This document shows, in pieces, positions 6,801 to 61,416 of a DNA stretch of 64,000 nucleotides (its first letter is position 1; every line of letters begins with the position of its first letter). Under the pieces are notes generated by a model, which saw only the letters and a list, made by a program, of their open reading frames with translations, was not told where the DNA came from and did no database searches. The stretch spans positions 1,049,387 to 1,113,386 of the forward strand of contig NW_019217784.1 of assembly GCF_002571385.2 (NCBI RefSeq), given 5' to 3'. The DNA comes from Stylophora pistillata (lineage: Eukaryota). The position numbers and the translations under genes are program-made.

Positions 6801-9800
6801 AGATTAAAAGAAATGATCACCAATGAAAGAAGTCCTTGACTGTTAAACAAATTCTTTTAATCAGCACCTTAAGGAATGTACAGATAACAATGGACAATAT
6901 GCTTACTGATGTTGGGGCTCACAGATGTAAAAATTAGTGGGATGAGAGAATTCCCCAATCTCTGTATAAATTATATCTTGAGCTGCTTGATAAGGCTTGT
7001 CACTATGATGATCCACTGATATTTTCTGTGAAAACAGTACTATGTTCTCATAAGTATTTTAGGGTGTGGAGCCAACTTAATTTTGTGGGGTTTGAGGTCC
7101 CATAGCAAGTGATTTGAAATGTAATGCATTTACAGCATGATAGTAAATGCTAACCAGTGGTTATTGAATTTTACTTTCATTTGTTATGCTATTTCCTAAT
7201 ACTTATACACTTTATTGTTGTTAAATTTAGGGTTCTGGGGTCGGGAAGTTGGTCAAATGGCAGGACATGAGCTTGCAATGGCAGCCATTCACCATCAGTA
7301 TGTTGTCACGTCTACCATTCCTGAAGTTGCAGCTCTTAAGCATGAGGTACCTGTCATCAGGGATCTTGAAGGATCTTACTACTGTAGACAGGAGAGGAAA
7401 GGCTTGTTATTTGGACCATATGAACTTCCAGAGAAGATGAAATTGCAGGATGAATGGTATTTGACTTGTACTTTATTCGCTCATGTCTTGCACACCAAAC
7501 TTTTCAGATCAATGTCAGTGTTTGAACAACTATGCACCTTCCCCTCCCCTCCCCTCCCCTCCCCTAACCCAACAACAGTCAATCAATAACAAGTTAGGTC
7601 AAATGTTGGGCTAGGGGAGGGGTGGGTGAACAGTTGTTCAGATACTTACTTAAGTCTAACCTTGCCTTGATCAACATTATTTAATATTCCATTCAAAGTT
7701 ATGAAGTTTGGTTCAGTTTGTTTGTGGTTCTTCACTATGTGAAGAACCACAGCCTTTTTATGACTTGCAGCAATTTTTTAAAGAAGAATTATTTCCAGCA
7801 TCAAAGGAATTAAATGACTATTTACAACTTCATCAGGTGGGATGGTGTGACACCAGGATTTGGGAAGGAACTCTTTGAAAGTGACCTAGACAGAATCAGT
7901 GATAATGTTGCTGTGGCAATGGAACGCATTCCAGTACTCGCAGATGCAAATATTGCAAGTGTTGTGTCAGGTCCTATAACTTACAGTCCTGATGTCAGTG
8001 CTATAATTGGACCTGCATTTGATGTGCCTAATATGTGGCTGGCTGTTGGCACTGGTTATGGCATTATCCATGCAGGTACATGCATGCTGATACAAAGTAC
8101 ATGCAATGTGAAAGTTACTCTCTGTTTCTAGATATTTTTCCTGGTTACCATATGTTTATTCACTTAGTTGAACTCACCAGCTGCGTGACTCTTATGCTTG
8201 CAATGTTTCCCTCACAATTCACTGGTACCCATTTCTACTTCCGGGGGGAGAGAGTAAGAACACAAAACAATTACCTGGGCAGATCTCAAACCTGCATATT
8301 TCAACCCAGAGTCCGGGGCATTTACCATCATAGTTGAACCATTTTGTTTTGATAGTGACTTGATAGCACACAGGTCTAAATTAATACAGCTCCATGTACC
8401 TCAAGTCAATGCAATGGAGTTTTTTAAATTTTGACCTAAGGTGGCATTGGTAAATACATTGCGGATTGGATGCTGGATGGAGAGCCACCTTATGATTTAA
8501 CTGAACTAGATCAGGGTCGCTATGGCAAGTGGACATCAAAGGAGTATGTAATGGCTAAAACGAGGGAATCATATGGCTTGAATAACCAACTTGGTCATCC
8601 TAAACTTGAAAGGCCTGCAGGGCGACCTGTCAGAAAGAATGCTATTTTTGAGGTAGGGTTTGACTCTAGATAATTGTAACAGCTGACTTGAAGCCAAAAA
8701 GAGCAAATTAAGTTATCATGAGGGACCAAGAAGAATAGAAAGTAAAAACAAGAAGACTGCTTGTGACACGGGAAATGCAGCTAATACTCTGCTCAAACAA
8801 AAGTGATCAATTTGCTAATTTGTGTGTTGCTCGATAGTATCCATGTATTGTGCTAAGACCTGGATTCTCGTATCCTCAATTTGTCGGGTTGATAAACAGT
8901 ACTCAAACCAATAAATAATGTTATATCTTTCAAACTTTGATACACGCTTTATTTATTTGCAGCGTCTTGTAGAACGAGGTGCAGAAATGGGATTCCACGT
9001 GGGTTGGGAGCAGCCAAACTGGTTTGCACTGCCAGGCGATGAGGGTGGTTACAAGCCGAGCTTTAGGAGAACAAACTGGTTTGAGCCGGTTGGACGAGAG
9101 TATGACTTAGTTCTCAATAAAGTTGGTATTATCGATCTGACACCATTTGGAAAGTTTGAAGTGAAAGGAAAAGATGCTTCAAAATTCATGGATATAATGG
9201 TTGCTAATGTTTTACCCAAGGTAAAGGACGGAAGGTCTTGCTGCTAGCCAGATTTCGTTGGTGAAGTTTGGACATATGTTTTCAGTTGCTACAGACACTG
9301 TGTACTTTTTCGTTACCATGTTCGCGGGCACGTAATTTGACCAAAATAGAAGAAGCTTTTTTGGCAAACTTAAATTTCTCACGTTGAAAGAGAACTGTCT
9401 TTAAAGGAAGTGAATTCTGCTGAAACTCACTGAATGCCGCCGATCAGAGTTGTCTCATTTCACTGATTTTTTTAAAGCCTGAATAAACAGATTAATCATT
9501 TAACAAACATTTTAAAATACTTTGTACCGGAGCAAATAACTCACAATTTTCGTGTCTTTTCCATTTCAAGTACAAAGCCACACGGTATACCCTAAATGTT
9601 ACTCGCAACAGAACAAAACCCATGCCATTTTCACGTGAAACAAATCTATAAACCTGAGTATGAGTTTATGAACGAGTAAGTTCCATAAGCATTTTCCCCG
9701 CACCTTTTTCTAGCGCCTGTCTTTGGGCAATCGAGAACTTGGAAAATGCAGCAAATGAGTTACGATGCAGAACGAACTGTATAAAAGGTTTGAGATTTCT

Positions 9801-12171: not shown

Positions 12172-12522
12172 TGTAAAGCAGACCGCAAAGCACAATCATC
12201 TCACCCTCCACCTCCCCCCTCCCCACCGTTAGACAGAATCTTCTTCCTGTTCCTAGGTTCCAAAAAAATAGCCCGTTAACGATTGAACGGCTTTTTGTCT
12301 TCGCAACAGGAGAGTTAAATAATTCAGCAACACATGCTTCTGACCAGAAGGCTTCTTAGAAGATTTCATCTTGACCGAATAAAAACGGTGTGTGCCTGTT
12401 CATTATGCGCAACTTCTAATGTTTATACATCGACACCCCATTTCGGTTTGGAAAGAAATTAATCAAGCTGAATTGTGTAGATACTTTTTAAAGAAATAAC
12501 TGAACTTATTAAAAACTAGATC

Positions 12523-12540
12523 ATTGGATAATGTAATTCT

Positions 12541-12573
<33 letters not shown>

Positions 12574-12685
12574 TAGCCAATATACCATAATCTACAAATA
12601 TGGCAAGCGTACGTGTCAGCTTAAAATTAAAAGGAGCCAAAAATTTAATAAAATTTAATAATTTAATTCAACGGTTTTAGTAAAA

Positions 12686-12722
<37 letters not shown>

Positions 12723-12803
12723 TATAGCCAACTCGGCGCTACGCGCCTTGTTGGCTATCTATCATCTCATATCCAACACGTGCTCGTGGAATAATTGTTA
12801 ATT
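12523..12803 (-). mobile_element. Non-autonomous element ending in a long hairpin (12684-12799), between the DMGDH and BHMT 3' ends
   Basis: ~55-bp inverted arms bounded by AACAATTATT...AATAATTGTT; minus-strand apex GCGC-GTA-GCGC. Confidence 0.65.
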
Positions 12804-13364
12804 ACACCTTGTCGATATTCAGTACTTTGTGTGATTTTGATGCTGCATGAATGTCATGTAAATAGATGATTGTAAAAGTGTTAAACCTGGCTCAGAGTTT
12901 ATGAATAGACTTCTCCAGCAAAACAAATAAATGTTTCAAGCAAAGCAAAGGTAAAAAATGTCATCTTTTATTATGCATCTTTTAACTCTTACAGCACACT
13001 TTCATAATTTTTATTTAATTTTCAGATGTCAAGGCATTGGCGCTTCTGCGAATAACCATAGCACACCAAAGGCGTGTCAGTGATTAAGACACCGCTATAA
13101 TTAAGCTAAACGAGTTTATGTGAAGAAGTTCATTGAGATAGTTCCCAATTAAAATTTATAACTACCCAGTAATCCCATGGATCAAATCCTAAATTATGAC
13201 AAACTCTTTCTTTTTTAGCGTTTTAACAAAAAATCTGATCACGCAATAAGGCATTTAATGTCCCTTCAAAAACCTATTTAGTAAGCTGACTCAGCAAGGT
13301 AAGACTTGGAACAAGCCAAGATTATTGCAATCTGAACACGAATACTCAGTTTCAGGCTTGAGTG

Positions 13365-38600: not shown

Positions 38601-38761
38601 TACCTATCAATTTCTTATTCTTTCTTTTTCTTTTTGTGCAGGATAATATTGAAAATGTGAGCTATGTGTGGGCACTGTGTCGTGATCAGAGCATATTGGA
38701 TCACAGATCTGCTTGGAGGGTGTTGGAGTTTGGAATTCAGAATAGCACTTCTTACCTTTGA
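32650..38761 (+). CDS. TIMM44: Mitochondrial import inner membrane translocase subunit TIM44 (~16 coding exons; first coding exon MAQ 32650-32658)
   Basis: EANEDATGVVLHKDSKWYQQWKEFKDNNPV, YDESDN, IIPSVLEAFLKGDLEILKDWCHE, AMAKVMEQGPVLVLTF, YVWALCRDQ...AWRVLE. Confidence 0.93.
34585..36010. mobile_element. Degenerate Penelope-like retroelement with 5' inversion, in a TIMM44 intron
   Basis: Minus-strand RT piece (FKQTNGITMGTKMGPSYANLF...YGRYIDN, 34611-34910); plus-strand RT C-terminus and GIY-YIG endonuclease remnant (CTSANV...YIGETGR, ~35510-35820); terminal hammerhead remnant at 35914-35947. Confidence 0.88.
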
Positions 38762-40043
38762 CAGTTTTTCATTTCGATATTAAATGTTATGAAATATTCA
38801 AAGACAAAAACTACTGACAACTTTGTCCCCTTGTTAAAGACCATTTTTCAGTTTGTTGTGTGTTTTTGTCACTTCAAGAAGGAGGAACTTGAAGTGAGCT
38901 AAAGTCATGTGAAACATGATTTTAGGAGTAACATTTGCTAACATTTTGCATCATCATGTATCACATGCTATTTTTCTTGGATGCTAAAGTGATAACAATT
39001 TTCTAAGTAGCCAAACCAATTCTACTGAGTAGAGATTATTATTTAAGGCTCAATTACAGCTGCTCTTTTTGAGGTGGGAGAAACAGATTAAAGAAACAGG
39101 AAATATGCAGTATCAAGTATTAAAATCAGCAATAATACAGCTCTTGTGGTCAGCTTCGGTTTGGTTGTCTATCCAATTGTTGATTTGTAAATATATTGTA
39201 CAGTTGGACAATTTTTTAAGAGGAATTGGTGATTATACTTTAGTGCTTCCAGTTTGGCGTATGTTGTACCAATTGCTGTCAAATGCTTTCTTTTGTTCAT
39301 GAACATTTTAATATATAGATTGATAGTTCTACTAGTAGTATTACTAACCAAACTGGTGTAGAGTAAAATAATAGAAGCAGATATGAATGTCACTGAATTA
39401 AACAGTGTATGGCATCATTTTCTTTTGTGATTGTCTCTGGAATAATTTATGTGAAGTTGTGTTGTGAATTTGTCAACAAGAGGAAATTATAAAACGTTTT
39501 GTTGAAGGAACTTTGACCTCATAGATTAGGTAATTTGTTTACTTTATGGACAGTGTCATCATGAGATGAGGGGATGGGAGAGGATGGAGAAAGGCAAATA
39601 ATAACAGCATTTTAATATCTAGTTATTTTATACTATCATCAATTTTAAATGGGTAATCTTGATCTTTAAGCTCCAGATTCGTTTGAATTTGACTAGGCTT
39701 TTTTTCATAAAACGCCACATAATGAGCTATCCTCGATACTTAATGCATGTGCAATAGGCCTCATCTGGGCGTGCATGTAGGAACCGCGAGAGAACTGGAA
39801 CTCAATTTGGAAGTTGCAGCTGAAGCGCTACCGCGCTTGCATTGTTCTGTTGTGTTTTCCCTCCGAATTTGCGTTCATACTTTTGCTTTATTAGAAGTAG
39901 GAAGATGATAGAATAGAGAACTTGGGAAAAACCCATCAAACTTCTTTCTCGAGAGCCTCTACTTGCGCACTAACGAACGTCACGTGACTGGTCTTCTTGG
40001 TCTCTTATCTTTTAAACCTCAAGCTGAGGTCGACTTATTAAAC

Positions 40044-41353
40044 ATGGTCAGTGCAGTGGTTAAGAAAACTGTCACGGGGCTTCTTGTGATAGCTTTCTTC
40101 GTAGCAGGCATCGCGAAAATCACGGACAAACTTTCCCCTAAAGTCCACCACCAAATGGTAAGCAGTCTCGATCCGTAAGTTGGTGTAAAACTCACACCTT
40201 GTGCTTTAATGCCTTCTCTTTCGATTGAAACGTATCAATTTACCACTCATCCTCGTCTTGTCCGTCTTGTTGATGTTATGTAGCCCTTTGTGCTTCAATT
40301 AAAATTTTTATTCCACATGCGTTGTCACGTCATGTCACGCGCATCTCTCACTATCTCTGAGATGTTTTGCCTTTGATTTGATGAGAACCATCCCCAATCT
40401 TCAGGAACAGTTTCAGTTACCTTGGAATTGTGTTGTTTCCAAAACTTACACAAGAGAACAAGTTATTATTTCCCAGTGGATTACTGATTTCTGATGTCGC
40501 CTTTCATTTAATTTGTTACATTATTTTAAGATGCAAATCACACGATCACTACGGATTTTGTTCATTACACAAACTTTGTTCCTAATCTTTCTTTATCTCG
40601 TCTATAGATTACTGTTCCTCTTAATCATGCTGTGTTTCCATGTAGAATTTTTTGCAAAGTCAGTACTTAAAATTACACTCAAAGGAGGGTAGCAAAGAAG
40701 CAGGAAGGGGGCAGATCCCGTTTCATACTTGAATTTTAGGAATATTCACGTAAATACTTTAAGCAGTATTTCATGTGTCACTAATTTCAAAGTAAATTCA
40801 CATGTCACATATCTATTTTGGGCCTAATCTTGCGTCAATTAGAAAAACCTTTTGTAGCCCTCTTTGAGTAACTTTAAATAGAGGTCAGATGGGGGNGGGG
40901 GGGGGGAGGTGGGTGATGGGTGGCAATGGTCATTAAGCTTCTGGAATCCCTCCAACGGGGTAGAGGTGATGTCTTTTTGAAAAAATATGGTATTTATTTT
41001 TTCTTCATGACAGTTTTCCTTTAACTCACCAGAAACGGGATTTTGCTGACCTGGCAAAAGTACATCCTTTAAAAGTGTGGTTTCATCGTGATGTAAGCTC
41101 AGACATGTATCGTCTTGTCATTGGCTACTTGGAAGTAATCTGTGCTCTTGTTCTGTATTCTGCACCAAGGCCTCTCAAATTTGCAAGCATCATAATCCTT
41201 TTAATTGTCATGGCAATGATAATGCAAGGACTTTATTGGCTGGGAAAACCTGCTGTTGTTTTTGCACCAGGAGCAGTCTCCTCATTCCTGCTTGTAATTA
41301 ATTTTATGACACTGCTAGGAGAGGCCCCACCAAAGCAGAAAAAGAGAGAGTGA
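40044..41353 (+). CDS. TMEM35/NACHO-like DoxX-family ER membrane protein (exons 40044-40157, 41032-41353)
   Basis: FFVAGIAKITDKLS...MKR, RLVIGYLEVICALVL, four hydrophobic helices, C-terminal KKRE ER-retrieval motif. Confidence 0.8.
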
Positions 41354-42171
41354 TTTGCGACTGTTGGACGAGCCCTTATCATAGCCTAATTATTGTCCGA
41401 GAGGAGATCAAATGCTCTTAGACACATCTATCCACTGCATCCTGTTACTTGTCTATCTGTGAACAACCAATTAGAATAAACTTTTTGCATAGGAGAAAAG
41501 GAACATTTCTTGAACAGTCCCTGGTACTCTTAAACCTACTACTTGCATGAATGCAACTTTTCATTTAAATGATTGTGATAGGCTAAATCTGTGAGGCTCT
41601 TGTGATTTTGTGCTGATAGAAAGTTAACTGATTTTTAAGAAGCGAGAAACACGTAGAATACTTTGAAGATTTCTCCATGTCTCCTGCCAGTGCCATTTTG
41701 CTTTGGTTGATGTTATTAATATGAAATACACATTCACAAGTTATCCGTCTCGTTAGCTGGAGAGCATTTTATGTCCTTGTGAATTAGAACTGAGATCGAG
41801 AGCTGATATTGTTTTGTTTTGTTTTGTTATGTATCAGTTACGATGTAATTTTTTGTTTGTTTTTCGTGTTGCAATAAATAACGTAACCTTTAGCTTGTTG
41901 AGATTTTTTTATAACGCGTGCCGCGCTCCATCCCCCCTTAGCCAAATACAGGGCCCCACGGGTACAGGTACACTCAAATCCCAGCTGCTGAACTTACCAT
42001 AGCCAGGATTTTTGGCATGACGAAAATATTTTCAACTATTTGCGATTTTCTTTTTGGTCGAAGTCACGCAATCTCACTTCCGGCGCCAAGTTGTGACATA
42101 TTTGCGCGTGAATTGCCCAGGAGGATGATGTTTTTCTTTATTTGCGCCAAAGTAAACTGTCCTACAATTTA

Positions 42172-42392
42172 ATTGGCCACCGCAAAGAGTTAAAAAGCTG
42201 ACGTTACGAGCGTTAGCCCTTCCTCAGAGCCCATTCGCTCTGACGAAGGGCTAACACTCGAAACGTCAGCTTTTAACTCTGCAGTACAGAGGCCAATTTA
42301 CAACTTCAACTTAGTTGATAGAACCAAATTACCTTGTTACCCCCACCGACGCTGCACTACAGTTTAGAAACTTACCACCTTTATTCATTTGT
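42172..42392. mobile_element. Solo Penelope pseudo-LTR with inverted partial copy
   Basis: Same family as 35905-36010; inverted copy 42172-42230 abuts the forward copy. Confidence 0.8.
42237..42270 (+). ncRNA. Minimal type I hammerhead ribozyme motif (Penelope-associated)
   Basis: GCT-CTGACGA-A-GGGC(TAAC)ACTC-GAAA-C-GTC-AGC: both core boxes intact, minimal stem III, one stem II mismatch. Confidence 0.75.
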
Positions 42393-42604
42393 CCCACCAT
42401 ACATTTGGCTATTGTGTATTGTGAAAACCTTACTTTGTTTTCTTTGGACGCAGTTATGTCTCAGAGGGTATTTTGTTATCCTTACATGTAAGACCTGTCA
42501 ATCTTTCACAGCGAAAAAAGGTCAAATATCTGGTTTCCTGTTGCGAAAGGGAAACACCATCCGAACGCCCCCAGTTACATATCGAGTTAAAACTGGTCGC
42601 AGTT

Positions 42605-45600
42605 ATGGCCGACAAACGTTTTCTTCTTGTGATTGTTTACATAACGCTCTGTTGTCTGGCAGAAAACAACGGAAGGTAAGTTAAGATGTCTCCTGTATGA
42701 ATCCTGCTTTTGAGATAGTGCAGACAGCTTTTTCTGCCTTGTGCCAAGCAGATTGTGAGAGTCAAATGCAGGTCCATGAAGGTTAACGGTACTGTCCAAA
42801 TTCTCGTTTACCACGACGCATAATGAATGAAACGAGCTTTCAGAATAACGTCGTTCACTAACGCCATATTAATTTTAATGACATGATTACTTCCCATCTT
42901 CCAAGCTCGCATTGTCAGTCAGTGGAACTGATACAGGAAATTCAGCTGTGCACTGAATTTTTTTGGTATCATTCAGAACAGTGTAAGCCAACAGTTAAAA
43001 AAAAAATTCACGGAAAATTAGTGATAAAGAAAAATGCCCGCACATTGTGAAAAAAAAAAAAAAAAATACAGGCAAATTAATATTGTTTCCACATAAATTA
43101 ATCTTCAGGACACAATCTTGCTTATCATAGTAAATGTGACTTTCTTTCATTTCATCCACTCTCTTAGGAATCCCCCCAAAATAGTTACCAAACATGGCAG
43201 CCTGGTTTTAAAAGCTGGTGAAGAAGGTGATATTATTTTTGAACCAGGCCAAGGAAAAAAAGTCTTCATTGGTGGAAATGCTCTAGTAAGGAATGATCTT
43301 TCTCTTGATAAACCTTGGGTTTTGCGATCCTAATTAAGTAACTGCATTACCTGTGGACCTGACTACATATCAATTTTTTTTGTCATCTTTTGGCAGAATA
43401 TGTCTGCAGTCTCTGGTGCTAAAGGAGAGGTATTTGGACAATTTTACTCCAAAATTAGTGTTTTTACTTGAGAATAATAAATAATTATTTTAATTACTAA
43501 GGATTAGCAGTATCATTCTAAATTCAAAATTGTTTGGATTTTTTAGAAAGGGGATCAAGGAAGTCAAGGACCTGTGAGTAACAAATTTCATTAAAACTGT
43601 ACCTTGATTTTTAAAATTACTTTTCTCATTTTGATAGTTAATTAGTAACATTCATTACATCACAATAAGTTTTGATTACATAAAATGTGATTGAAATTTT
43701 TAAAAGTGGGAAACAATACGTCATTGCATAAATTAATATTATTAGTCCTCACTTAAATTGTTTTAAAATTCATTATGGTATAATTTTCTCAATTATAGGC
43801 AGGAGCCAAGGGTGAAAAAGGAGAGATGGGGCCGCCAGGACGTGTAACATCCATGGTAATCATCATCACTATCATCAATGTTATCAATCTCTTTGTATCA
43901 TGAATTGATTTTTATTACTGGAAATTGCAAATGGTTTGAATTGTATTAAAACTGATCTTCACAAGTTTGCATCTGCTTCAAATTTATATTCAGAATGGAA
44001 GAGTAAACATGACTGGGCTTCCTGGGGAAAAAGGAGAACAGGGAGACCAAGGACAGCCTGGAAATCCAGGTCTAAATGGGACTAAAGGGCAGGTAACTAA
44101 TCATTTTTTCCACCTCCTTTCTTTCACAACAATCCCTTAATAAAATAAGTTCAATACGTGAACCTAACTTTTGATGACACAAATTCCTGCAAACATTAAA
44201 TTTTAGATTCAATCAGTGTTTAGTAATAGGATTGCTTTAATTCACTATGTTCTAGTATTTAGTGCACCCCTCTGGACATTGAGTTTCTGGTTTTTATTTT
44301 TAAGCAATTTATATATTTTCCACACAGAAAGGTGAACCAGGCATTCAAGGACTAGCAGGGAAGGTTAGCACAGGGTTTATTTATTGCAAAATTTTCATTT
44401 TATTCATTCATTTTAAAGTTCTCTTGACTCACAAGCCTGGAAGTGTATGGCACACTTCAAGAAGGCCCCTCTGTTACTTGAATTTAACCCTCTAACTTCC
44501 ATTAGTGATTGAAATATAACTTCTCCTTACAATATCCATATGTTAGGGACCTAACATTATTTACAGGGAGGGGGGGGGCTGGTGGAAATGAGGGGGTGAC
44601 CAAAAATTTGTGTGCTCATAAAAAGAGGGGACCAAATAAAATTCTGCAATATCAATACCAGCAAAATTGACTTTTTATGTTTTAATTAGAGACTCTGATA
44701 AAGAGAAGACTCAATCCCAATCTAAACAAACGGTTGACAATTGAAAGTCCTTAAAGTATTTCATCCTCAGATTCACTGCTTTCCCCTCTGTCACTTTCAT
44801 CTATTTGTGCATCACTTTTAAAAAAGGTAGGATGGTATTCTTCATAACATTTCATTTTGGTTTACATAAAATGTTTTGGTATAGTATCTTAGATCATTTT
44901 TTGAGTGCCAAAAAATTAATTTAAAGAATTATGGAGGGGGGACTTAAAGGGGGGACTTATAAAGGGGGGGAAGTTTATTGAGAAGTTTTTGAGAAGTTTA
45001 TTTCTCATTTCCACCAGCCTCCCCTCCCTGTAAATAATGTTAGGTCCCTTATCTACCAAACAGTCGATGAGAATACCCAAACTTATCAGGTGGAAGTTAT
45101 CTTAATCTAATGCAAAATTCTCACAATTAATTTACAGGGAAATGTGTAACAGATAAAGGGGAGAATTAACAGTTGGATCTTGAGAGGTCAAGGATTGAAG
45201 TAATGTGATCGAATCTTGAAGTAAAAGGTTGATAATTATTTCATTTGTTATGTAGAATGGATCTGATGGCATTCAGGGTCCCTCTGGTGCAAAAGGGACT
45301 AAAGGAGAACCTGGACAGCAAGGCCCACCAGGGCCATTATTTAATACCTTAACTCAAACCACTTTGAGGTGGGTCCTTTATTGAAAATGTGAATGAAATA
45401 TCAAAATAATGTAATTAANNNCAGATGTGAAAACGTTTAGTTTCTTAATTAACAAAAAAAAAGCCAAAAATAGCAGAAAGCAGTTTAGAAATGTTCATAG
45501 CATGATAAATGCTGCTGGAATCATTAGTTGCAATATAAAAGTGGACTAAAATATCCAAAACAAATGTGAAAGCAAAATTGAAGTTAGTTGATTACGATAG

Positions 45601-48444
45601 CTCCAATCCTTTTTGCTCAGCCTTTTTTTCATTCCATTTCTACAATGAGTACCTCAAAGTTGAACATAAAAGCAATGTGATGGTGTTCCAAAAATTACCT
45701 CCATTATAATACTGCTGAAGATAGCTAATAATGCATTGCATGTATGAAGCAATAATTTTTCAGCATCATCAAAAGGAGCAATGGTTGCAGTTTTCCTGCG
45801 ATTTTGTAAAGCCCCCCAGAATGAAACAGCTTTGCAACATTTTTTTTTCTTTCTTACAGCAATGCAAGAATTTTTTTCTGTTACATTTGGGCTGCATGCA
45901 TTTTTTTTCTTCCAACAAGCGCTTGCAGGAAATTTTCTTTCAAAATCACCCACCCCCTTCAAGAGTTAAATGGTCGGCCCCTTAATTATTCTCAGGTGGA
46001 ACCAAATGATGTTTGTTGTCTCTGCATCCTTTTCAGATGTGAAAATGCCAGCGATCATGGCTCAGTTAGGTTTATGTCAGGATTTCTTCAGGTAGTTGCT
46101 GATCTGTAGTTGTATTTTTGCAATCCTCACTGACTCAAACTAACAGATAACATGATTTATAAATTGATAAGTCCATTCAAGTAGTTACTGACTTAAATAG
46201 GGTTTAAGTGAACAGAAAGTGAACTTTTATTATCATGTCATTTTATTACTTCTCAAAAGTGGTGATAATGGGAACTTGAAAATGTTTCAAAACTAAACAT
46301 TTAGCCACAATTTTATGATTATGACTTTACAAAAGTCAAAAGAGGTTAATTACTGAATCTTTCTGAAGTGGAAAGTCACTAACAATCACTCAAACCTGCT
46401 GTAGGTTTGCACCAAACTGGGCTGGCAGAAGCTTGCATATCAGGGAGGTCTGTGTGAAGAGCTGAATGTACCACAGATAAACCATGAAGCTTTTCAAAGA
46501 TCAACATTTGGAGTGCTGTTACAGTTTAATGGAAATCTGGATGTTAACCTCAGTCCTAACACAACTCTAAATAACATCACAACAGGTAAATCTAACCAAT
46601 GATAAATCATACTCTTCTATTCTGTGCAGTAATATGTACGAATTAAGTTGTGATTACTTAACATGACTCTTCAGTGATTAGAATCCAAGAAGGGTGAAAA
46701 GAGCTGTCTGCTAGCAAGCGAAGTAGAGACTTTGTAATTTGTTTCATTGCAAATGCTCCTCTCTACTTTTTTTCTTTTTAAAGAACTGACTTCCTTAAGA
46801 GTGACCTGCTTTTAATTTCTCCAAGGTTACATTATCACCCTTGAATCAAATATAAAGGCTATGAGAATAAAGGAAATGATCACCAATTTAAGAAACTCGT
46901 GATTGTGAAACAACTTTTACTTGTCAGAACCATATGAAACATAATGAGAACAGTGTGGAGAATGATGCTAAAGGGTTTAGAACTTGACACACAAAAATGC
47001 AAATTGATAAAAGATACCAATTGATAAATGAATAAGGCATTACTCTAAGACTGCATTTTGAAAAAAGATATTTATATCTCTGATCTTAGAGTACCAGGGC
47101 AATGCTGGAGGACAAAACATCACTCAATATATCCAAAGTGTAATGGGTCAAGCAGTGAAGCTTAAAGGACTGGAATATATCAATTTGCATGGTATCCCAG
47201 CAAATTTCTGGAGTGGTGATGAATGGTCTGTTATGACCTTACTTAAGTTTCATGATGATGGCCTACTAGGAAATAACAAAGACATTCTTGTACTTGGAGA
47301 TGGAATAGCAGCAAATAATGAGGGCTTTCACCTTGGATTACGACAACAGGTATAATCTGGCAGCCACAGAGCTATTTCACAACAGCAAGCATAAGTATAA
47401 TTATAATGTGTGCATGCTAATTAGCTTTTGAGTTAAACTTCTATTATTTTCACTGATGTTGACATCATGCCAAGTGAACAAAGATATATAAAATAAAATA
47501 GAATAGCAACTTGTAGGCTCACCATGGAAGATATCTATGATTTAACCTTCAAGATAAATTTGTTTGCTGTAAAATTGTTATTAGACTGCCTCTCAGTGTA
47601 AAATGATGACCAAAAATTAGGTTTCACATTCCCTTTGTTCTTTTAAATTTTGACTTACATTTGACTATAGCAAGTGCCAAACTGAAAAAAAATTAAAGAA
47701 AACAGAAGGAAAAATTGATGTATATTTGTTTCTTTTGTTAATTCTTTGCACTCTCCAGAAAGTCATGTATGGATTCTATTCAAGTGACACTTTGGGGTCT
47801 CAAACTCTTTATTATGGAAAATGGTACCACATCACATGGACATGGACAAAAGCTAATGGAATACGGTGAGACAGATGCTAAATATGTATGCTTTATAAAC
47901 ACTTTGTCATGTGAACACTGCGTGTCCTCTTTCCTCCTTTCTTCTTGAACTATCTCCTTCCAATAGTGCTGTGTGCTGGGCCATGCAGCTCCCCCCTCCC
48001 CCCCATGCTTGTACCAGTGGGTGAGGCTCTTGAGAGGAATTTTATTAATGGGAATTTTTTTTCAATAAAAGCAGTGAGGCCCATACTGGTCAATAGATAA
48101 CTATTTATATTTTTTTCTATTTCTTAAGTCCTTTTCAAGTCTACAAGAAAAGGAATTTGTTTTAATTGATAAATAATTACTAATTAAATTTTAGTTACAC
48201 CAGTCTTGCTAATCTCCACAGAAAAATATTTGTCAATGGTAAAATTGACAAATCTGCAGACAAAACAAGTTCCTATCGAGGAATAAGTGGAAAAACTCAA
48301 ATCGGAACTTGGTGGAGTGGAAACAATGGATTGAAAACCAATGTAGAGATTGATAATCTCTATATAATTGATGAAGCAATTGAATACCCTCGCTTAAACC
48401 AACAGCTGTGTTATGCCAAGGCATTCAACTTGAACATGCCATAG
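42605..48444 (+). CDS. Secreted protein: signal peptide, cubilin-N-terminal-like segment, interrupted collagen (Gly-X-Y ~10 + ~22), Cys-containing neck, LamG/ConA-like C-terminal domain (13 coding exons)
   Basis: Exons ~42605-42675, 43168-43285, 43397-43429, 43547-43573, 43799-43855, 43994-44092, 44328-44363, 45256-45368, 46037-46091, 46405-46585, 47090-47349, 47759-47865, 48222-48444 join in frame; LamG3-type motifs GQAVKLKG, WSVMTLLK, GKWYHITWTW, KIFVNGK, IGTW, IDNLYII. Confidence 0.85.
44546..45048. mobile_element. PIF/Harbinger-type MITE nested inside the ~190-bp TTAACCC repeat
   Basis: TIR GGGACCTAACATTATTTACAGGGAGGGG...GGCTGGTGGAAATGAG; TTA TSD on both sides. Confidence 0.85.
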
Positions 48445-49015
48445 GAGAATAGAGATGCAAAACATTTAGTGGGTTCAGCTATCACTTTTCCACCATATAG
48501 GCCAGATGAATTCTTTCTCCTTTCCTGTCATCAGATGATAAGCTTTTTAAAAGAAAGTTCTATCAGCTCATCATCATCAGTTTTTATACACTCAACCGGC
48601 TTTAATTTGCCATTATCCACATCACCTGGTGCATTTATGCAAATTGTTTGACATTCATGACTTCCCTTCTTTAATAAATATTACCAGCTATCATTTTCTG
48701 ATTGATCATTAAGATATTATGCATTAATTGAGCCATGTGAAATTAATCCTCTGAGAGAATTAAGGACTTTTCTGTCTGAAAGAGCAGCAGAAAAAGTTGG
48801 GAAAAAGTAACCTTTCACACAATAATACCAACTTTGATATTCTTCACTAGATTTCAATCTGAAGCTCACTACCAATCCTTTGTTCAGTTTCTTATAATGC
48901 ACTCCTTTCCCTTCTAGCCTCTTTTTAATCTATCACAATCTTAATTGGCTAAACAGGTCAGCTGACCAAACTGTCTCCAAGTACTTTCTCCTTCCACTTC
49001 ATGATGTTAAGCATC

Positions 49016-51909
49016 TCAGTAGATTGGCCCTTCATCCATGTCGTCATCTTCCATAAAGGCATCTTCGTCATCATCAAAGTGTGACACCAAGTAATCATTT
49101 TCCTGAAAGGTTTATAAATTGTTAAAATAAGCCAGTCAGTCGTCTCTCAATGAATAGCCTTAGCACCCAAATTCATTTGGTAAGTTAAGTTTATAACAAA
49201 AGGAAAAAAAATATGCTTCAAGTATTGATTATTTTTTTACCTCTTCCTGTTCTTCTTCATCATATTCCAGTTCTTCTTCTCCACTCTCTCCTTCTGTTCC
49301 CTCTTCCTCTTGATCATTAGCCTTATCATTATCAACCTCCTTCTGAACCATTTCCTGAAGAGGCAATGTAGATGCAGGATTGATGTACTATTTCAAAAAC
49401 GAGTGCAAGGTTTCATCAGGGTTTCCAAACATGAGAAAACTAATGAAAGCCCGAGGTCACAGGTTTTCAAGTGTTTGGAAAGCCTGACGAAACCTGATCC
49501 ACAAGTTTTTGGGTGATCACCTTTTGAATAATTAATGAGTTTGAAAATAAACGACCAAAACTAAACCTCATCCCACCCTCCCCCCCCCTCACAAATCTAG
49601 TGAATTTCCTGCCAATGAGGAATGTTTATGTGGCACAGTTATTATATAGTGAATTTATTTGCCATGAAAACTCAGTGGTGTCTCTCTATTTAGAAGTAAA
49701 TGAACAGAATTTAAATATGGGACCACTTTTCACAGATAATGTATTATGGTATTACTAGTAGACAATGTATTTGTTTATTCCAAACTCTAATAAGCAGGTC
49801 TGCCAGGTGTACAAATTAGTCATCAACCATACAGAATAATTTAAATATTTTCATACCTCTAGCTGCTTCAAGGCCTCCACACCAGCACTATTCTTTTTGA
49901 TTTGTTTGACAATTCTTGGTCCTTCCAAAAGGACAAAAAAAATAAAATAAATACTTAGTGAAGGTGTTTCTTCTGAATCAAATAACCTTTTTTTTGAATA
50001 CCCTTGAATAATAATTTACCCAACAAAATATGAAATGACTCTCAATATTGAAATGTAAGTGCATCGGCAGTAGAGTGCGCTGGTGTTAAGATTTAAAACT
50101 TAAGTCTTGTCCCTGACCAACAACAGAGTATAAGGTAATCAGTTGGGAGAATTAAATTTCAAACCTTGTGGGTGACAAGAAAACAATAAGAAGTAAGGGT
50201 TGTTTCAATCAAGAATGACTATTTAGAGGACTGTTTCTTGTTTTTGTAGTATTCATACTTGCATTCCTGGGAGTCCTGTGTCTTTTCACCTTTATTTTCA
50301 ACTCATTTGGAAATAATGTCCAGTCTGGCAGGAATGAAAAAGACAAGTCTGGTTGATGATGATGTGTATTTTTAATATACATGTTCTTTTATACATGCAT
50401 GCACTATTGATCATAAAATCCTAGGGAAATTCCCATCACCTGGTTGCCAGTCCAATCCTTGTTTTTTCTTTTCTCTGTATCTGTCTGAAAACCTCTCAAT
50501 ATCTGACTCAGAAAAATTAAGAAAATGGCCAGAACCTGTTAATAACTGTGTGTAAATAGAAGATATTACATGGCCGCATTAACACATTAAATTTCTCTTC
50601 AAGTGTTGAAAATTTTTTCATGAGTGGGGGAAATGAACAGGTGAAATATTTTCATTATGAGAAGAGAAATTTTGTATTTCCAAGCTGCCATGTAACATTA
50701 TTTTTATTGCATAAACACCAATGAATAACCAAACCATTCCACTTTCCCTAGCTAAGGCTCGATTTGTTGTGTAACCATAGTAACTGTTATTTTCATGTAA
50801 GATTACATGTTAATTTCATGTGTTTCATTCAATTTGGTGTTTATATAATAAGCAAAGTTATGACATTCAGATCTGAAAATTTTAAACACACTAAGAGACA
50901 ATCATGTTTCTGTGCTTAAAATGATTCAGTTTGACTATTTTCCTGCACCCCTTTTACAAATTATTTACTGGAATGCTTTTACAGAAAAAAAGTATGCTAC
51001 TGATTTGAAAAAACTGACTCTTACCTTTGGACTTAATTTCTGCCTTCACAAAATAAGGTAGTTCACGCATGCACCCTGTTATCTCTTGTTTCAATGCAAG
51101 CATGTATTCATCGGCATCTGTCTGCCTTAATGGCAATGGCTTGATATCTAGAGGCTATAATATTCAGATATGATCTTCATAATTGTAATCATTGTCATTA
51201 ATAAAAATTTAGAGTATTTTGAGAATATGATGACAAAATAGCTGATTAAAAAAGTAACACTTAGAGCCTTCTTCAAAGGATAACCTAGCGTACAAATGGA
51301 GGATGGGAACTACATACAACAACATAATTATGTGACTTTCTCTCTCTTTATACTGGAAGATTTTACTCCACCATCGTCGTCGGTATAATTATAATATTAA
51401 TATATGCAATAAAAAATTAAAATTAAAAAAATAAAGAAAAAAATTGGAAATATAACTATACACTAACTGAAGGATTTTAGACTGGGTTAGTGGCGTCACA
51501 TCATTCGCCGTTATCTGATGTGCCATGAAGGATGAAAATCCAGCTGAGCTTTAAAATTAAGGAAAATTAGAGAAATAGGCAACTGCGCAATATATTGCAG
51601 ACTTAATGTCGGGAATCAGGTCAGAAGTGAAGAGTGTGTTTAATTCAGACCTTACATATGGCCTTCACAACCATAATTACAAATAGATTTTTACGCTTTC
51701 CAGAGTTCGAACCTCAACCAGCTTTATGTTGTCAAATAATTATCGGTGCAATTTCAGTCTGCAAGCGACGCAAAGAATACACCGACCGGATAAAATGGAG
51801 GGGGCTGTTGTATTGCAGCAGGTAATGCTTCTCCTCGCTTAAAGCCAATCATTCCAACGTCAAAAGAAAACCCTCGTCCTCTACCTCTTCCTCGACCTCG
51901 ACCCGCCAT
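49016..51909 (-). CDS. POLR3G: RNA polymerase III subunit RPC7 (POLR3G/POLR3GL family), ~7 coding exons
   Basis: MAGRGRGRGRGRGFSFDVGMIGFKRGEALP...QPPPFYP, LPYFV, DIERFSDRY, DWTLFPNEL, acidic tail ENDYLVSHFDDDE...DEGPIY. Confidence 0.9.
49394..49510 (+). mobile_element. Degenerate hairpin element with apex deleted
   Basis: aaaaacgagtg..ggtttcatcagggtttccaaaca / tgtttggaaagcctgacgaaacc..cacaagttttt inverted arms. Confidence 0.5.
50557..50850 (+). mobile_element. Degenerate (CpG-decayed) hairpin element
   Basis: ttacatggc...aaatttctcttc / gaagagaaattt...gccatgtaa inverted arms at 50566-50695. Confidence 0.5.
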
Positions 51910-55244: not shown

Positions 55245-58200
55245 ATGGCGGCCAACAGTGGAGATGTTATTTTCAGAGTCGGTGAGGTAAGAAAGCATGG
55301 CATTCACCTCAATTTTAGGGACGTACTCAGGAATGCAATTTAAGGACTTGAGGTCTTTTATGTTAGTGTTTTCTCATAAGTGATTTAACTTCCGTTTAGC
55401 AACAATTCTGAATTCAAGGCCACCAGATGTTACAACACAGCCGTTACCTGATGCGAATTTTGTTAGACCGTCTTTTATGCCCGGGCTTTTATAATAGAAT
55501 GTTACCATTTTTTCTCTCCTCAACTTGAAGAAAATCCCTTTGGAAGCCTTGTCATGTATACTTTAATTTTCCAAACAAAACCAAACCGTAAACATTTTAT
55601 TCCAGGTATCTTAAGTCATAGATCACTACAGCTAGTGAAATGAACTTTGTATTGAGAATGTGTCTTAACATCTCAGAATCTGTTGATGATTTTTCTAGCA
55701 GGCTGACGCGTCAGACATCTGGGATGATACTGCGCTAATAGAGGCATACGATCGAGCAATAAATGCCATCAAGGTATTTGTTGATTGTTGTCCCGTTATT
55801 TTCCCCTGACATTGGGCAGCCTTTTGTTATTCCATGGTTAAAAGTGTTCATATTGTTTTTAAAATTACTTTTCTTCGCTCAGTTTAATTTTAACGTCTCA
55901 GCTATAAATTATGGGTAAAACTACCAATACTTAGTTTTATAATTTGCTGTACATCCAGATTTTATTTGTTAGCATTTTAACAATGTTGTTCTATAGTTTT
56001 AGTGCATGGCTTGTTATTCAATGATATTCCTTTGTTTCTTTAATGACTTTTTTATTGATCAGAATGGAGGAAAGAGTAGTGGCACAAAAGGAAAGAATGG
56101 TGGTAAGAACAGGTATGAGTAAAAACATTGCAGAGACTTTGTTTTCATCATAGAGGGAGAAAGGAATGTTCTGCTTGGAAAAGAAAATTGTGTCAATGAC
56201 AGCAATAACAGAAGTAACAGCTTCATTTTATCCTAACATAGACTGCTGTTAACAAGTTCTTAGCTAAAACATATGGAGTACTCATGCTATGTTTAGTGTT
56301 AAACATAACAGTTTTTCAACTCTTGCTGGCCAGGAAACATCAGTTGTCAAAGAAAAAGGACAAGAAGAAACCAACAGAGCAGGTAATAAAGGCAAGAGTG
56401 ATTCTTGAAAAGCTAGTTTTTTTCATTTAGGACACAAATTATAGAAACAGTGAGTATGAAAGTTTGGGACTGCAAGAGATACTTTCTTAGATTTTTTAAA
56501 TAATTACAATGTAATGTGAGGGTAAGGAAAGTGAAGAAAATTGTTAGCGCAGCAAAAACTTCATTATTGGCAGGGAAAATTTAAAGATTCAATGAGGCTA
56601 AACTGCAGAATACCCTGCCACTCATTTACATGTCATTGAATAAGAATAGCCTCTATTGTGAAGAACGAAGACAACACAATAGAGGCCATTCTTCTTCAAT
56701 GAAATGTAAATGAGTGGCAGGGTATTCTGCAGTTACTCCAAGGTAACAGTTTCTCTTGCATTGTAATCCATCTAAATACTGGGAGGTGTAACTGCATTTG
56801 CTAATAAAACTTTTTATTATTTAAAAGATGTTTTATCATTCAGAGTTTGAGAAATGAATTTTATAAACATTAAAGCTGAAACTTGATGCATCAAACTTTT
56901 ATTTCAGTGGCATGTTGGTGATAAATGCCGGGCTGTTTACTCTGAAGATGAAAAGATTTATGATGCAGTGATAATTTCGCTTAATGGCAGTTCCAGTACT
57001 TGTGTTGTGAGGTTTTGTGGCTATGGCAATGAAGAAGAACAAACCTTGGATGATCTTTTACTGCCATCAAAGAAAGACTTTAAGTCTCCCAAACAAAGTG
57101 GACCTCAGTCTGGCTGGCTGGCATCTCCAGAACAAAATGTAATTCTTTCCCTTAGTTTTGGAGTTAGTGATTGTGCGCAGTACTCTAGATTTTCCAACTT
57201 AATTTTTACTCTCGTTGGGAATGTTTGTTAGAGTTGTGATAATGAAATGGACTGGAGTACTGGGGACCAATCACCCATCAGATGGCAAGTTAGTGACTTA
57301 TGCCTTGCTCCTGAACAACCTAGTCAGCATCTTCATGAAGCAGTTATCAACTCTTTTCCAACATCATACACCTGCAAGGTCACTTTCCTGAGATCCAGGC
57401 AAAGGTTAGAACCTTCATGTTTGTAATAAATCTCTCCATGGGAAAGAAGAACCTTTAAAATTAGTCTTGCTCCCAACTTGTGGTTTTGTTTCGTAGTTGA
57501 TAGTAGTGCCCAACTAGTAGCTGTGGGGCACTGGCTTCTTTTCTGTAATTTCTAAAATTACAGCTCACCCATGAGGATCATGGGTCTATCTAAATTTGAA
57601 AGAGACTACAGTATCAAAGTTTTACTTCTAAATGAAGAATAAAGTATTATTGGTTGAGTTTATTAGCTTCAATGTTTACTATTCAGACAAGATGTTGACA
57701 TATCAACACTGAAGCCTTCACATTCATCACGCCAAGTGCGCCTCAACCGTCACAATCATCGTAGTCATCATCACCCTTACACAGCTGACCAAAGATACCC
57801 TGTGTCAGGAGCTCCATTTACCAGTTATCCATTTCAGTCCAGCCATCAGTCTCCTGTAAGTATTCAGTAATATAGTAGACACGGGTATTGCAATATTATA
57901 CACTATCGAGAAAGAGAGGTCTGTAAATGTCCTCAGAATACTAGCTGTCTTTTGTTTCATATATTTCTCAGTTATTAAATTATTTTCTCAGATGAATTTT
58001 TGTGCACCATTTCCTCCTCCTCCTCCCATACCACCTGTTCTCCTTCCTCATCACTGGCCAGACACCACAGGATTACAACCCTCAGCACCTACAAAAAACT
58101 CTGTAAGTCAAACATTAAAAGCATTTCAAGATTGTTTGGAGCATCAGGGTCTATGAAATAATAATCCCTTATTCAGTGGATAATGACAGGTTGTAATTAA

Positions 58201-59976: not shown

Positions 59977-61416
59977 TCAATCAAGGTTTGAGGATGCCAA
60001 TACTGTGGACAAAGCTTTAGCATATGCTTTAGGGTTCTTATAAAAAACGCAGTTGTTAGCACAAGTATCAGGGTTTGTGTCCCAGATTGTTAGTCCACAT
60101 GAACACAAGGGAGGAAGAACAATGTTCTTGCTTTGTGCCTTATCTCTTAAAACAGCCTGTAAAGCTTCAATGTATCTCTCTGTCTCCCTCTCTTTTTGGA
60201 GTTTTTTGTGTCTCTTAACCAAGTCCAATTCCCTTTTCTTTGCCTTTTGAGCTTTGAGAAAAGACTCCTCTTCTTTTCTGACTCTTTGCATTTTAAGATT
60301 GTCAATCTGCCGTTGCTCTATCTCGAGGCGTTCAACTTCCTTTTCAACTTTCAAAGTTTCCATTCTTTTACGATGCTCCCTCATCCGAATGTTTTCCCTC
60401 ACCTGCTCCCTCTCAATGTCCATAAACAGCCTCCTGTACACAGCAACTTGAGATTTTGCACGTGCTTTGTTTTCCTCCAATAGCTTAGCAGGCTGTAAAA
60501 GCATTTCAACATATTTGTCTTTTCTCTTGGCTGATGCATCATCATTTTTTTTAAGCTGGCTGTCCCAATCCTCGTTTTCTACCTCTGAATTTTCCTCATT
60601 TTCAAAGTGAACATGTTTTTCAAGTGATAACTGGTCTCCACTTCTTGGCAAACCACTCTCTGGAATGAAGTGATCTTGATCCAAACTTTGGTCTTGTATG
60701 GCATTTTCTCCAATCCAGTAATCACCGATTTCTTTAAGTGAATCACCACTACGAATTTGTGCCTCTGAGTGAGAAACTGGCTTCCTGGATAAACCATGAT
60801 CTTTAGTCGGAGAAGTACGCCACAAGCCTCCAGGAAGGAGTTTACTATATTGCTCAACTTCTACCCCAAGACTTTTGGAACTGAGAACCTTCCTTGCATG
60901 TTTCGAACAATTTCTGATTTTTTTCGCATGTTCATCCAACAGCTGGCTCGCACTATCCACTGCTGTGAAATCTCGCGTCACGCTCCTTTGGATTTTGAGC
61001 TCAGACTCATCCCGATAAACACAATTGTCCCGTCTGACAGTGCTAGGTATAGAACTCTGTCGAACAACATTGCGCTCCACTTCAAAAGCCTCCACCGACA
61101 TGCCATGTTGTTCCTCTCGTTTCATTTGCTCAATATTTCTGACTCTTGTTTTAACCACCTGCTGGAATTCTTTAAGCCTTTCTTCTTTCTCTTGTATAAG
61201 TTTTTTGAGTCGAAGTTCTTCATCACGGGCTCCATGTGAGCTTCTATGAGTCTGTCCACGATGCGGTTCTACCCAGGCCGAAAATGGCAAGATTGCAGAA
61301 GATCGATGTTCTAGTTGCCCCTTCGATCGCGTTTTCTGTGGCGGCTTTTTCTTTGCTTGCAGGTTCGCTCTTATTGGATTGTTTTGAGGCACTCTGAACT
61401 CGATTGAGGTTGCCAT
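59977..61416 (-). CDS. CCDC15: Coiled-coil domain-containing protein 15-like (centriolar), intronless, 479 aa
   Basis: AWVEP, FQQVVKTRV, LPGGLW, YRRLFMDIEREQVRE, C-terminal LPPLCSCG.TIWDTNPDTCANNCVFYKNPKAY. Confidence 0.85.
   Translation of the reverse strand: MATSIEFRVPQNNPIRANLQAKKKPPQKTRSKGQLEHRSSAILPFSAWVEPHRGQTHRSSHGARDEELRLKKLIQEKEERLKEFQQVVKTRVRNIEQMKREEQHGMSVEAFEVERNVVRQSSIPSTVRRDNCVYRDESELKIQRSVTRDFTAVDSASQLLDEHAKKIRNCSKHARKVLSSKSLGVEVEQYSKLLPGGLWRTSPTKDHGLSRKPVSHSEAQIRSGDSLKEIGDYWIGENAIQDQSLDQDHFIPESGLPRSGDQLSLEKHVHFENEENSEVENEDWDSQLKKNDDASAKRKDKYVEMLLQPAKLLEENKARAKSQVAVYRRLFMDIEREQVRENIRMREHRKRMETLKVEKEVERLEIEQRQIDNLKMQRVRKEEESFLKAQKAKKRELDLVKRHKKLQKERETERYIEALQAVLRDKAQSKNIVLPPLCSCGLTIWDTNPDTCANNCVFYKNPKAYAKALSTVLASSNLD

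Follow-up and report, generated by a model that had tools for sequence, protein, structure and literature searches.

Terminal hairpins of one-strand design in apparent non-autonomous Cryptons of Stylophora pistillata: a candidate single-strand recombination system

We analyzed a stretch of 64,000 nucleotides from Stylophora pistillata (contig NW_019217784.1, positions 1,049,387 to 1,113,386 of the forward strand; hereafter the window), in which three repeats, designated F1, F2 and F3, end in long imperfect hairpins. These hairpin elements are almost certainly non-autonomous Cryptons of the DUF3504 group, and all three derive from longer elements that carry a tyrosine recombinase (YR) gene. Their hairpins have very probably been selected for the folding of one DNA strand. 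With moderate confidence, and by analogy with integrons, we favor the view that F1-F3 may move as a folded single strand that is integrated by their own YR through single-strand recombination. The genome searched comprised 398 Mb (labelled G000, with the window on its contig C1), and genomic loci are cited by L numbers.

Hairpins, element boundaries and the recombinase partner

The five hairpins listed in a preliminary description of the window were all present, those at 12684-12799, 19543-19688 and 26004-26108 being intact and those at 49394-49510 and 50566-50695 decayed. As described there, the minus-strand apices of the three intact hairpins are C-GTA-G, C-GCA-G and C-GAA-G (loops 12740-12742, 19616-19618 and 26055-26057, respectively), the first and third hairpins share AACAATTATTC ends, and CGAG is opposed to CGAG three times in 19543-19688. 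One inner loop of the first hairpin and one of the third, each present in the family majority, have been lost from the window copies by a point change. Seven hairpins scoring at least 18 were found in the window, against none in each of five Markov-simulated windows, and no Rfam family matched on the hairpins. Genome candidates for the three intact hairpins numbered 1299, 2027 and 1680, and the 40 of each that were scored showed 96-100% identity.

The idea that the hairpins are whole elements was rejected, because their flanks show each to be the right end of an element of 294-316 bp. F1 (12506-12801, plus strand, 296 bp; boundaries from 30 loci) begins TTATT with the left arm a (12506-12516, plus strand), an inverted copy of which, a', lies at 12673-12683, directly before the terminal hairpin (12684-12799, minus strand). 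On the minus strand, the F1 family majority has two GA/GA loops and one GC/AA loop. F2 (19378-19693, plus strand, 316 bp) consists of a at 19378-19390, a' at 19527-19539, a 5-nt spacer at 19540-19544, the minus-strand hairpin at 19543-19688 and a 7-nt end at 19687-19693. F3 (25817-26110, plus strand, 294 bp) has a at 25817-25845, a' at 25975-26003, the minus-strand hairpin at 26004-26108, with three GA/GA tandems in the family majority, and a 7-nt end at 26104-26110; sequence runs mapped to this locus gave loose ends at 25815-25817 and 26110-26114.

The layout common to F1-F3 is therefore a...a' b-hairpin-b', in which a' is an inverted copy of the left end placed directly before the hairpin. 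Because a' adjoins b, the segment a'b is the reverse complement of the joint formed where a right end meets a left end; in F1 this internal mirror (a', a 5-nt spacer and the start of b) occupies 12673-12693 on the plus strand. Such end-to-end joints occur in head-to-tail F1 arrays (L020/21, L024/25 and L026-28), where the spacer is 7 nt, and also between families, with F3 followed by F1 in L013 and F1 followed by F3 in L327/328. The spacer was 5 nt in the internal mirror versus 7 nt in the joint in 11 of the 12 families parsed, the 7-nt end being supported by many flanks in F1-F3 only. The families also pile up as neighbors, as in L148/L284 (G000:C6, about 177,600-180,800), where F3, F1, the long F3 partner, whose hairpin is shortened, and a second F1 copy lie side by side.

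Sister families of F1-F3 account for the two decayed hairpins. The first (49391-49511, strand unassigned) matches, at 74% over 149 nt (E 6e-22), a family in which CC-GTA-GG forms the apex of the younger copies; in L163 and L171, the distance between hairpins with this apex and YR genes is 160-232 nt. The second is part of a decayed whole element of a fifth family (50553-50850, minus strand), with the hairpin at 50563-50698, a' at about 50700-50725 and a at about 50823-50850. Its apex has been lost, and the majority of seven family copies restores GC-GAA-GC and GA/GA loops on the plus strand of the window. This family, with 174 genome candidates at 70-81% identity, is related to the end of the YR-bearing loci L114/L106/L141.

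A search for DUF3504 gave 91 genome matches; 90 surrounding loci were examined, and 82 of them had a YR match. Both F1 ends flank a YR gene in L150, L144 and L286, the first ~150 and last ~170 nt of F2 flank one in L122, L124 and L125, and both F3 ends flank one in L284/L148, the F3 partner having been located by protein search. Identity to the long versions at both ends was 90-95% for F1, about 90-96% for F2 and 89-93% for F3. The long versions have 1.9-2.3 kb between the shared ends, with a single YR frame as the sole gene. F1, F2 and F3 are internal-deletion derivatives of these YR-only elements, so that they were correctly called non-autonomous in the preliminary description. It had also suggested an HUH enzyme or a tyrosine recombinase as the partner and a search for long copies with the same ends. 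Such copies were found for all three families with a Crypton YR gene inside, and only the tyrosine-recombinase half of the suggestion survives, because the long partners of F1-F3 carry neither an HUH nor a reverse transcriptase gene.

Among the five frames scanned against Pfam, the YR matched PF12012 (DUF3504, E 2e-9) and PF00589 (phage integrase, E 5e-6), and no other family but QRICH1 was found. Database relatives of the YR are unnamed or are KIAA1958-like or QRICH1-like proteins from corals. A full-length database relative (P0001, 93% identical) was modelled with a pLDDT of 73, and the predicted fold resembles Xer, Cre and the Crypton-derived QRICH1 (best Z 15.1, root-mean-square deviation [rmsd] 3.1, 175 aligned residues). 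P0001 itself is an intact YR, with R122, H256-R259, H282 and Y291. Both L150 and L284 have intact R, HxxR, H and Y motifs but also a break upstream, and every inspected genomic YR copy has a stop, frameshift or gap elsewhere. Frame and splice signals point to a GT-AG intron in the long versions, which appears to be kept in the dispersed copies inspected.

The elements thus show the features of Cryptons: a sole YR with R-H-R-Y, a length of about 2 kb, no reverse transcriptase, no C-terminal GCR1_C domain, no target-site duplication (TSD) and ends shared with the short copies. [quoted passage not shown] The mark of fungal and oomycete Cryptons, a direct repeat of 4-6 bp at both termini, is absent in F1-F3, in which only TTA/NTA is common to the two ends. 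The family of L092, L117, L160 and L174 has the terminal hairpin upstream of the YR gene and a second hairpin of 60 nt downstream. A hairpin of the C-GNA-G class lay within 1.3 kb of the YR in 43 of the 82 loci, compared with 16% of random intervals, a figure that is inflated and partly circular because the families were in part defined from the same YR loci.

Mismatch design of the hairpins

Clustering of the hairpins gave 23 groups with a GNA-type apex, of which 8 were dropped as fragments or subgroups. When the 2x2 internal loops of the remaining 15 families were oriented by the apex, 26 of 38 were GA/GA, 5 were GC/AA and 2 were TC/TC; counted as columns on the GNA strand, tandem GA/AG occurred 31 times and TC/CT twice. 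The GNA apex and the GA/GA loops lay on one strand in 13 of the 15 families. These counts bear out, across families, the strand-specific and non-random mismatch design that had been proposed from the window. The orientation of F1 and F2 was taken from curated patterns, automated calls being noisy for both. In 567 kb of randomly chosen sequence, 32 hairpins of this class were found, and the apex C-GNA-G or C-GNNA-G was intact in 14 of 35 strong hairpins.

Comparison across copies, another check suggested beforehand, showed that the stems covary between related families and that the G.A columns are kept. Compensatory stem changes outnumbered one-sided changes in G3/G4 (16 vs 4), in G2/G6 (9 vs 4) and in G1/G68 (12 vs 5), and all six G.A pairs were kept in the last of these. 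In three poorer family pairs the corresponding numbers were only 10 vs 9, 6 vs 10 and 19 vs 8. In F3, one arm had been converted to a perfect match, with the outer loops erased, in 8 of 51 copies. Those of the converted copies that were printed had no shared body changes, indicating that the loops were erased copy by copy (or by assembly) and were yet kept in the lineages. Selection for structure rather than sequence had been proposed; the structural part of this claim holds, and the sequence part does not, the TTA...TAA arms and the 7-nt end being conserved within each family.

DNA energies computed with ViennaRNA differed by a few kcal/mol in both directions and did not separate the strands, so that the strand preference rests on published physical chemistry. 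RNA energies favored the GNA strand in 11 of the 15 families. The DNA hairpin GCGAAGC melts at 76.5°C, compared with 39°C for its RNA tetraloop counterpart, and GNA mini-hairpins in DNA are described, in the part of that account concerned with them, as far more stable than those in RNA and as poorly bound by single-strand-binding protein (SSB) (PMC13037366). By nuclear magnetic resonance, the tandem pairs formed where CGAG faces CGAG are sheared (PMC10085684, in its section on this motif).

Certain points weigh against selection for the folding of one strand. The 15 families were chosen for their GNA apex and are related in pairs, so that the counts are not independent. In the ViennaRNA calculation, the energy of the other strand was equal or lower in 7 of the 15 families. 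The converted F3 arms may be assembly artefacts. Finally, in the L117/L160, L114 and L244 families the apex and the outer loops are on opposite strands, which points to a likely inner flip, either tolerated or of later date than the insertion.

Target site and a candidate single-strand route

The F2 copy in the window lies in another repeat (19250-19377, resuming at 19694; plus strand), whose paralogues supply the empty site. Nineteen paralogues without F2 show that the element was inserted before GTAC with nothing duplicated or lost, and the empty sites of L059 and L067 likewise show no TSD and no deletion, which confirms the lack of TSDs noted in the preliminary description. In the left flanks, TA was found at -9,-8 in 88 of 136 junctions, and in the right flanks T was found at +2 in 93% and A at +3 in 82% (n=55). 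The target is TA-W-N6^N-TA, a loose palindrome whose 6-bp spacer is of the YR type and is opened at its right edge. The element begins with TTA and is followed by NTA. The 7-nt spacer of the element was kept exactly at the right junction in 30 of 34 F1 copies. At the left junction, it was found in 3 of 136 cases, each of which was the end of a neighboring element, and in none of the 133 junctions without a preceding element. This polarity is consistent with one strand exchange on the GNA-loop strand.

Two other mechanisms were considered and rejected. A coupling sequence of the Tn916 type does not apply, as in L265 the empty target has the same variable bases as the left flank of the element. 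Nor does a parvovirus-like flip-flop: inversion of the whole hairpin was seen in 1 of 30 F1 loci and apex flips in 1 of 64 F3 and 1 of 43 F2 copies (13 F3 and 10 F2 copies were unassigned, and the F1 pattern caught 4 copies only). Flips so rare speak against rolling-hairpin replication and against inversion amplification of the 2-micron type. No empty F1 allele was present among the joints listed from four raw-read runs at roughly 1-2x unique depth, and no empty F3 allele among the rows listed from four contig runs. Reads that skip F2 in all likelihood derive from paralogues of the repeat that hosts it and so do not demonstrate polymorphism of the F2 site.

In the route that we favor, the bottom strand, defined as the strand carrying the GNA loop and the GA/GA loops, would be freed at a replication fork or gap and would fold. 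The GNA triloop and the sheared tandem G.A pairs would make this strand, unlike its complement, stable and resistant to SSB or replication protein A (RPA), and the duplex would stay an imperfect palindrome. With a paired to a' and b to b', both ends would meet on the internal mirror, and the YR would release a single-stranded circle. The joint of this circle, paired with the mirror, would form a YR core in duplex form (TAA-spacer-TTA), in which two bases immediately 3' of the predicted cut would stay unpaired; in a computed circular fold of the F3 bottom strand, the joint and mirror were indeed paired and two bases were left unpaired. The YR would then cut the bottom strands of the element and of the target, the latter after TA-W, and swap them once, and replication would resolve the junction. 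One cut, one swap and replication would leave the spacer of the target on the left and that of the element on the right, as observed. The left junction would again be a target, so that members of one family or of several could line up head to tail in arrays. YR chemistry places the bottom-strand cut at a spacer's right edge. The strand predicted to be cut is the GNA and GA/GA strand in F1-F3 and most sister families, and it is mainly this coincidence of the cut strand with the folding strand that leads us to prefer single-strand recombination. For animal Cryptons as a whole, we lean slightly toward regarding them as eukaryotic single-strand YR transposons, in which the ends and the internal mirror would build the site, and one exchange followed by host replication would complete the movement.

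Several observations weigh against this route. No single-stranded or circular molecule was observed, so that the intermediate is a matter of inference, and no circle joint was found among the rows listed in the read and contig runs, in which circles are indistinguishable from tandem arrays. The junction polarity would also fit a double-stranded circle that recombines across a TTA/NTA core of very small length, or cutting of the top strand at this same position. In the L095 group, the 5-versus-7 spacer difference was not cleanly readable, and the L117/L092 family has a 5-bp direct repeat at both ends. In comparisons with the YR model, the integron integrase 2a3v (Z 10.2, rmsd 7.1) was matched no more closely than other YRs.

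A possible but rather improbable alternative is that the strand folds only to make or copy a circle. The mirror would then be a splint of the DIRS type, the circle would be made double-stranded and would integrate over a TTA/NTA core of 2-3 bp, and the GNA hairpin would be a priming or protection signal like the single-strand origins of phages. The topology of DIRS-1's internal complementary region (ICR) has been suggested to yield a circle junction ahead of double-stranded integration, with a trinucleotide at each of the two ends (PMC7192593, in its discussion of the ICR), and here TTA begins the element and NTA comes after it. Phage priming sites on single-stranded DNA carry GNA mini-hairpins, according to the part of PMC13037366 that treats them, and the prevailing model of Crypton movement has a double-stranded circle (PMC13565253, in its Crypton passage). 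However, this alternative leaves unexplained both the constant difference between spacers of 5 and 7 nt and the preference for TA at a position nine bases upstream from the cut, a mark of a YR-type target with a 6-bp spacer. Moreover, a two-strand exchange over mismatched spacers predicts that the element spacer remains on the left in some copies, and none of the 133 informative junctions had it there.

It is quite unlikely that the mismatches are neutral by-products of template switching, CTCG and CGAG being reverse complements, and that the hairpin is a double-stranded protein-binding site or a cruciform. Arm conversions and apex flips do occur at the frequencies given above, and the energy models give little strand difference. 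However, neutral micro-inversion predicts that GA/GA should be as frequent as TC/TC and that other symmetric loops should occur as well, in contrast to the 31 vs 2 observed; conversion removes mismatches, yet these last across families whose stems have turned over.

More improbable still is that the elements parasitize at the RNA level as mini-DIRS, being copied by the reverse transcriptase of a DIRS element, with the structure selected in RNA. Their layout resembles that of an ICR, and the RNA energies point in the same direction. Tandem G.A pairs are also stable in RNA. Nevertheless, the long partners carry only the YR, the dispersed copies inspected keep the presumed GT-AG intron, and GNA mini-hairpins are much weaker in RNA, according to the account cited above for their stability (PMC13037366). 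Mobilization of the short elements in trans by an HUH enzyme, as in Helitron2/Helentron-type elements, with which they share a superficially similar layout (a 5' asymmetric terminal inverted repeat [ATIR], a subterminal 3' ATIR and a hairpin; PMC3627910, in part), the lack of TSDs and the occurrence of tandem copies, has scarcely any probability, since all three families derive from YR-only elements (the genome itself was not searched for Rep/HUH genes), the hairpin of 105-146 nt reaches the end in contrast to 20-30 bp in Helitron2, and the target has a YR-like dyad symmetry.

Related systems, other features of the window and significance

The elements resemble animal CryptonA elements in having a single DUF3504 YR gene, a length of about 2 kb, no GCR1 domain and no TSD, in that non-autonomous copies far outnumber autonomous ones, and in their presence in cnidarians. 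The ancient repeats Eulor5 and Eulor6 are hairpins. They were assigned to Crypton by terminal similarity by Kojima (2018), part of whose paper also treats a salmon Crypton-N (PMC5753468). Kojima and Jurka (2011) reported animal Cryptons with non-autonomous derivatives and, in the portion of the paper concerned with termini, no terminal repeats (n.d. for all in the supplement) (PMC3212892). The Crypton entry of a curation guide lists a short direct repeat as the sole mark (PMC8969392), and the Crypton passage of a 2026 review states that the mechanism has not been demonstrated and assumes a double-stranded circle (PMC13565253). In contrast to the animal Cryptons described, the present ones have defined, asymmetric ends, a terminal hairpin of 105-190 nt, a joint mirrored within the element, GNA and GA/GA motifs specific to one strand and the TA-W-N6^N-TA target. 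Among the papers listed by a literature search, none was on Crypton hairpin ends, an internal mirror or recombination of single-stranded DNA, although Repbase and Dfam entries may note the hairpins.

Integron attC sites recombine by a single exchange of the bottom strand with replicative resolution (PMC3458562), and a GAA loop is found on the bottom strand of most attC sites of mobile integrons (PMC5027507), as described in the parts of these papers on attC folding. The present elements share with attC and IntI a YR, an imperfect hairpin and a product polarity consistent with one exchange; they would also share the favoring of one strand, a GAA loop and purine-rich unpaired parts on the strand presumed to recombine, and unpaired core bases. 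They differ in being eukaryotic, in that the core is built from both ends and the internal mirror and not from one hairpin, in having a loose palindrome and not attI as target, and in their tandem GA/GA blocks, which were not met in the portions of the attC accounts compared; single-strand recombination is proven for attC and inferred here. The attP site of the CTX phage is named beside attC as a comparable system in the former source (PMC3458562), and strand-biased YR elements exist in Vibrio (PMC9345347, in the part on these elements).

DIRS-1 has an essential ICR and single-stranded DNA intermediates, according to the sections of PMC7192593 on its replication; F1-F3 may have such an intermediate too. 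Shared with DIRS-1 are the YR, the complementarity of an internal segment to the two outer ends, the lack of a TSD and insertion into existing copies. Unlike DIRS-1, the long versions of F1-F3 are without reverse transcriptase, RNase H and gag, the introns are retained, and the second arm pair forms a local hairpin and not long inverted repeats. The asymmetric inverted repeats with a terminal hairpin, the lack of a TSD and the strand-specific hairpin recognition presumed here are also features of Helitron2/Helentron elements (PMC3627910, in part) and of IS200/IS605, from which the present elements differ in having a YR and not an HUH enzyme, a much longer hairpin and a dyad-symmetric target.

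The window contained further repeats. Two of them (14942-15250 and 18675-19208) are multicopy by read depth, and opposite-strand joints at 14947/15250 suggest that the former has inverted ends. A 166-bp tandem duplication with inverted copies of a GC-rich MITE-like end lies at 20540-21354, a minisatellite with a 22-bp unit and a palindromic core lies within short inverted ends at 22447-22612, and nested inverted repeats of 97-98% identity at 27772-28394 surround two opposed tRNA-like genes (27893-27965, minus strand; 28246-28318, plus strand). At 34332-35497, inverted repeats of ~130 bp flank a frame (34611-35000) that is reverse-transcriptase-like by the appearance of its protein. A repeat with CTGA(C/T)GA...GAAA occurs as an inverted pair and one additional copy (42186-42280 and 35908-36014), and we take it to resemble the hammerhead-ribozyme repeat of Penelope-like elements or retrozymes; no Rfam match at the gathering score was obtained for it. 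Long palindromes of a similar kind are present in L068, L152, L177 and L256. The near-perfect hairpin at 56601-56734 (60-bp arms, 14-nt loop) is without the GA/GA design. Judged by eye, the host genes presumably comprise dimethylglycine-dehydrogenase-like exons (7200-9247), an intronless lariat-debranching-enzyme-like frame (30940-32595), collagen-like repeats (43800-45330), a Tudor-domain exon (56887-57231) and a coiled-coil-rich frame of 485 aa (59977-61434).

A folded single strand would be a route other than the double-stranded circle usually assumed for Cryptons. The locus set supplies exact ends, the joint, a target consensus, a prediction of the strand and position of the cut, and an enzyme family that is nearly intact, so that the question of how Cryptons transpose is now directly testable with oligonucleotides and one protein. 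The hairpins also provide natural, selected examples of sheared G.A structure in DNA and a means to annotate a common class of repeats. If the proposed route is true, these Cryptons would offer a eukaryotic parallel to the recombination of integron attC sites and of the CTX phage, with non-Watson-Crick DNA pairs maintained by selection in the thousands of copies that make up a dozen families.

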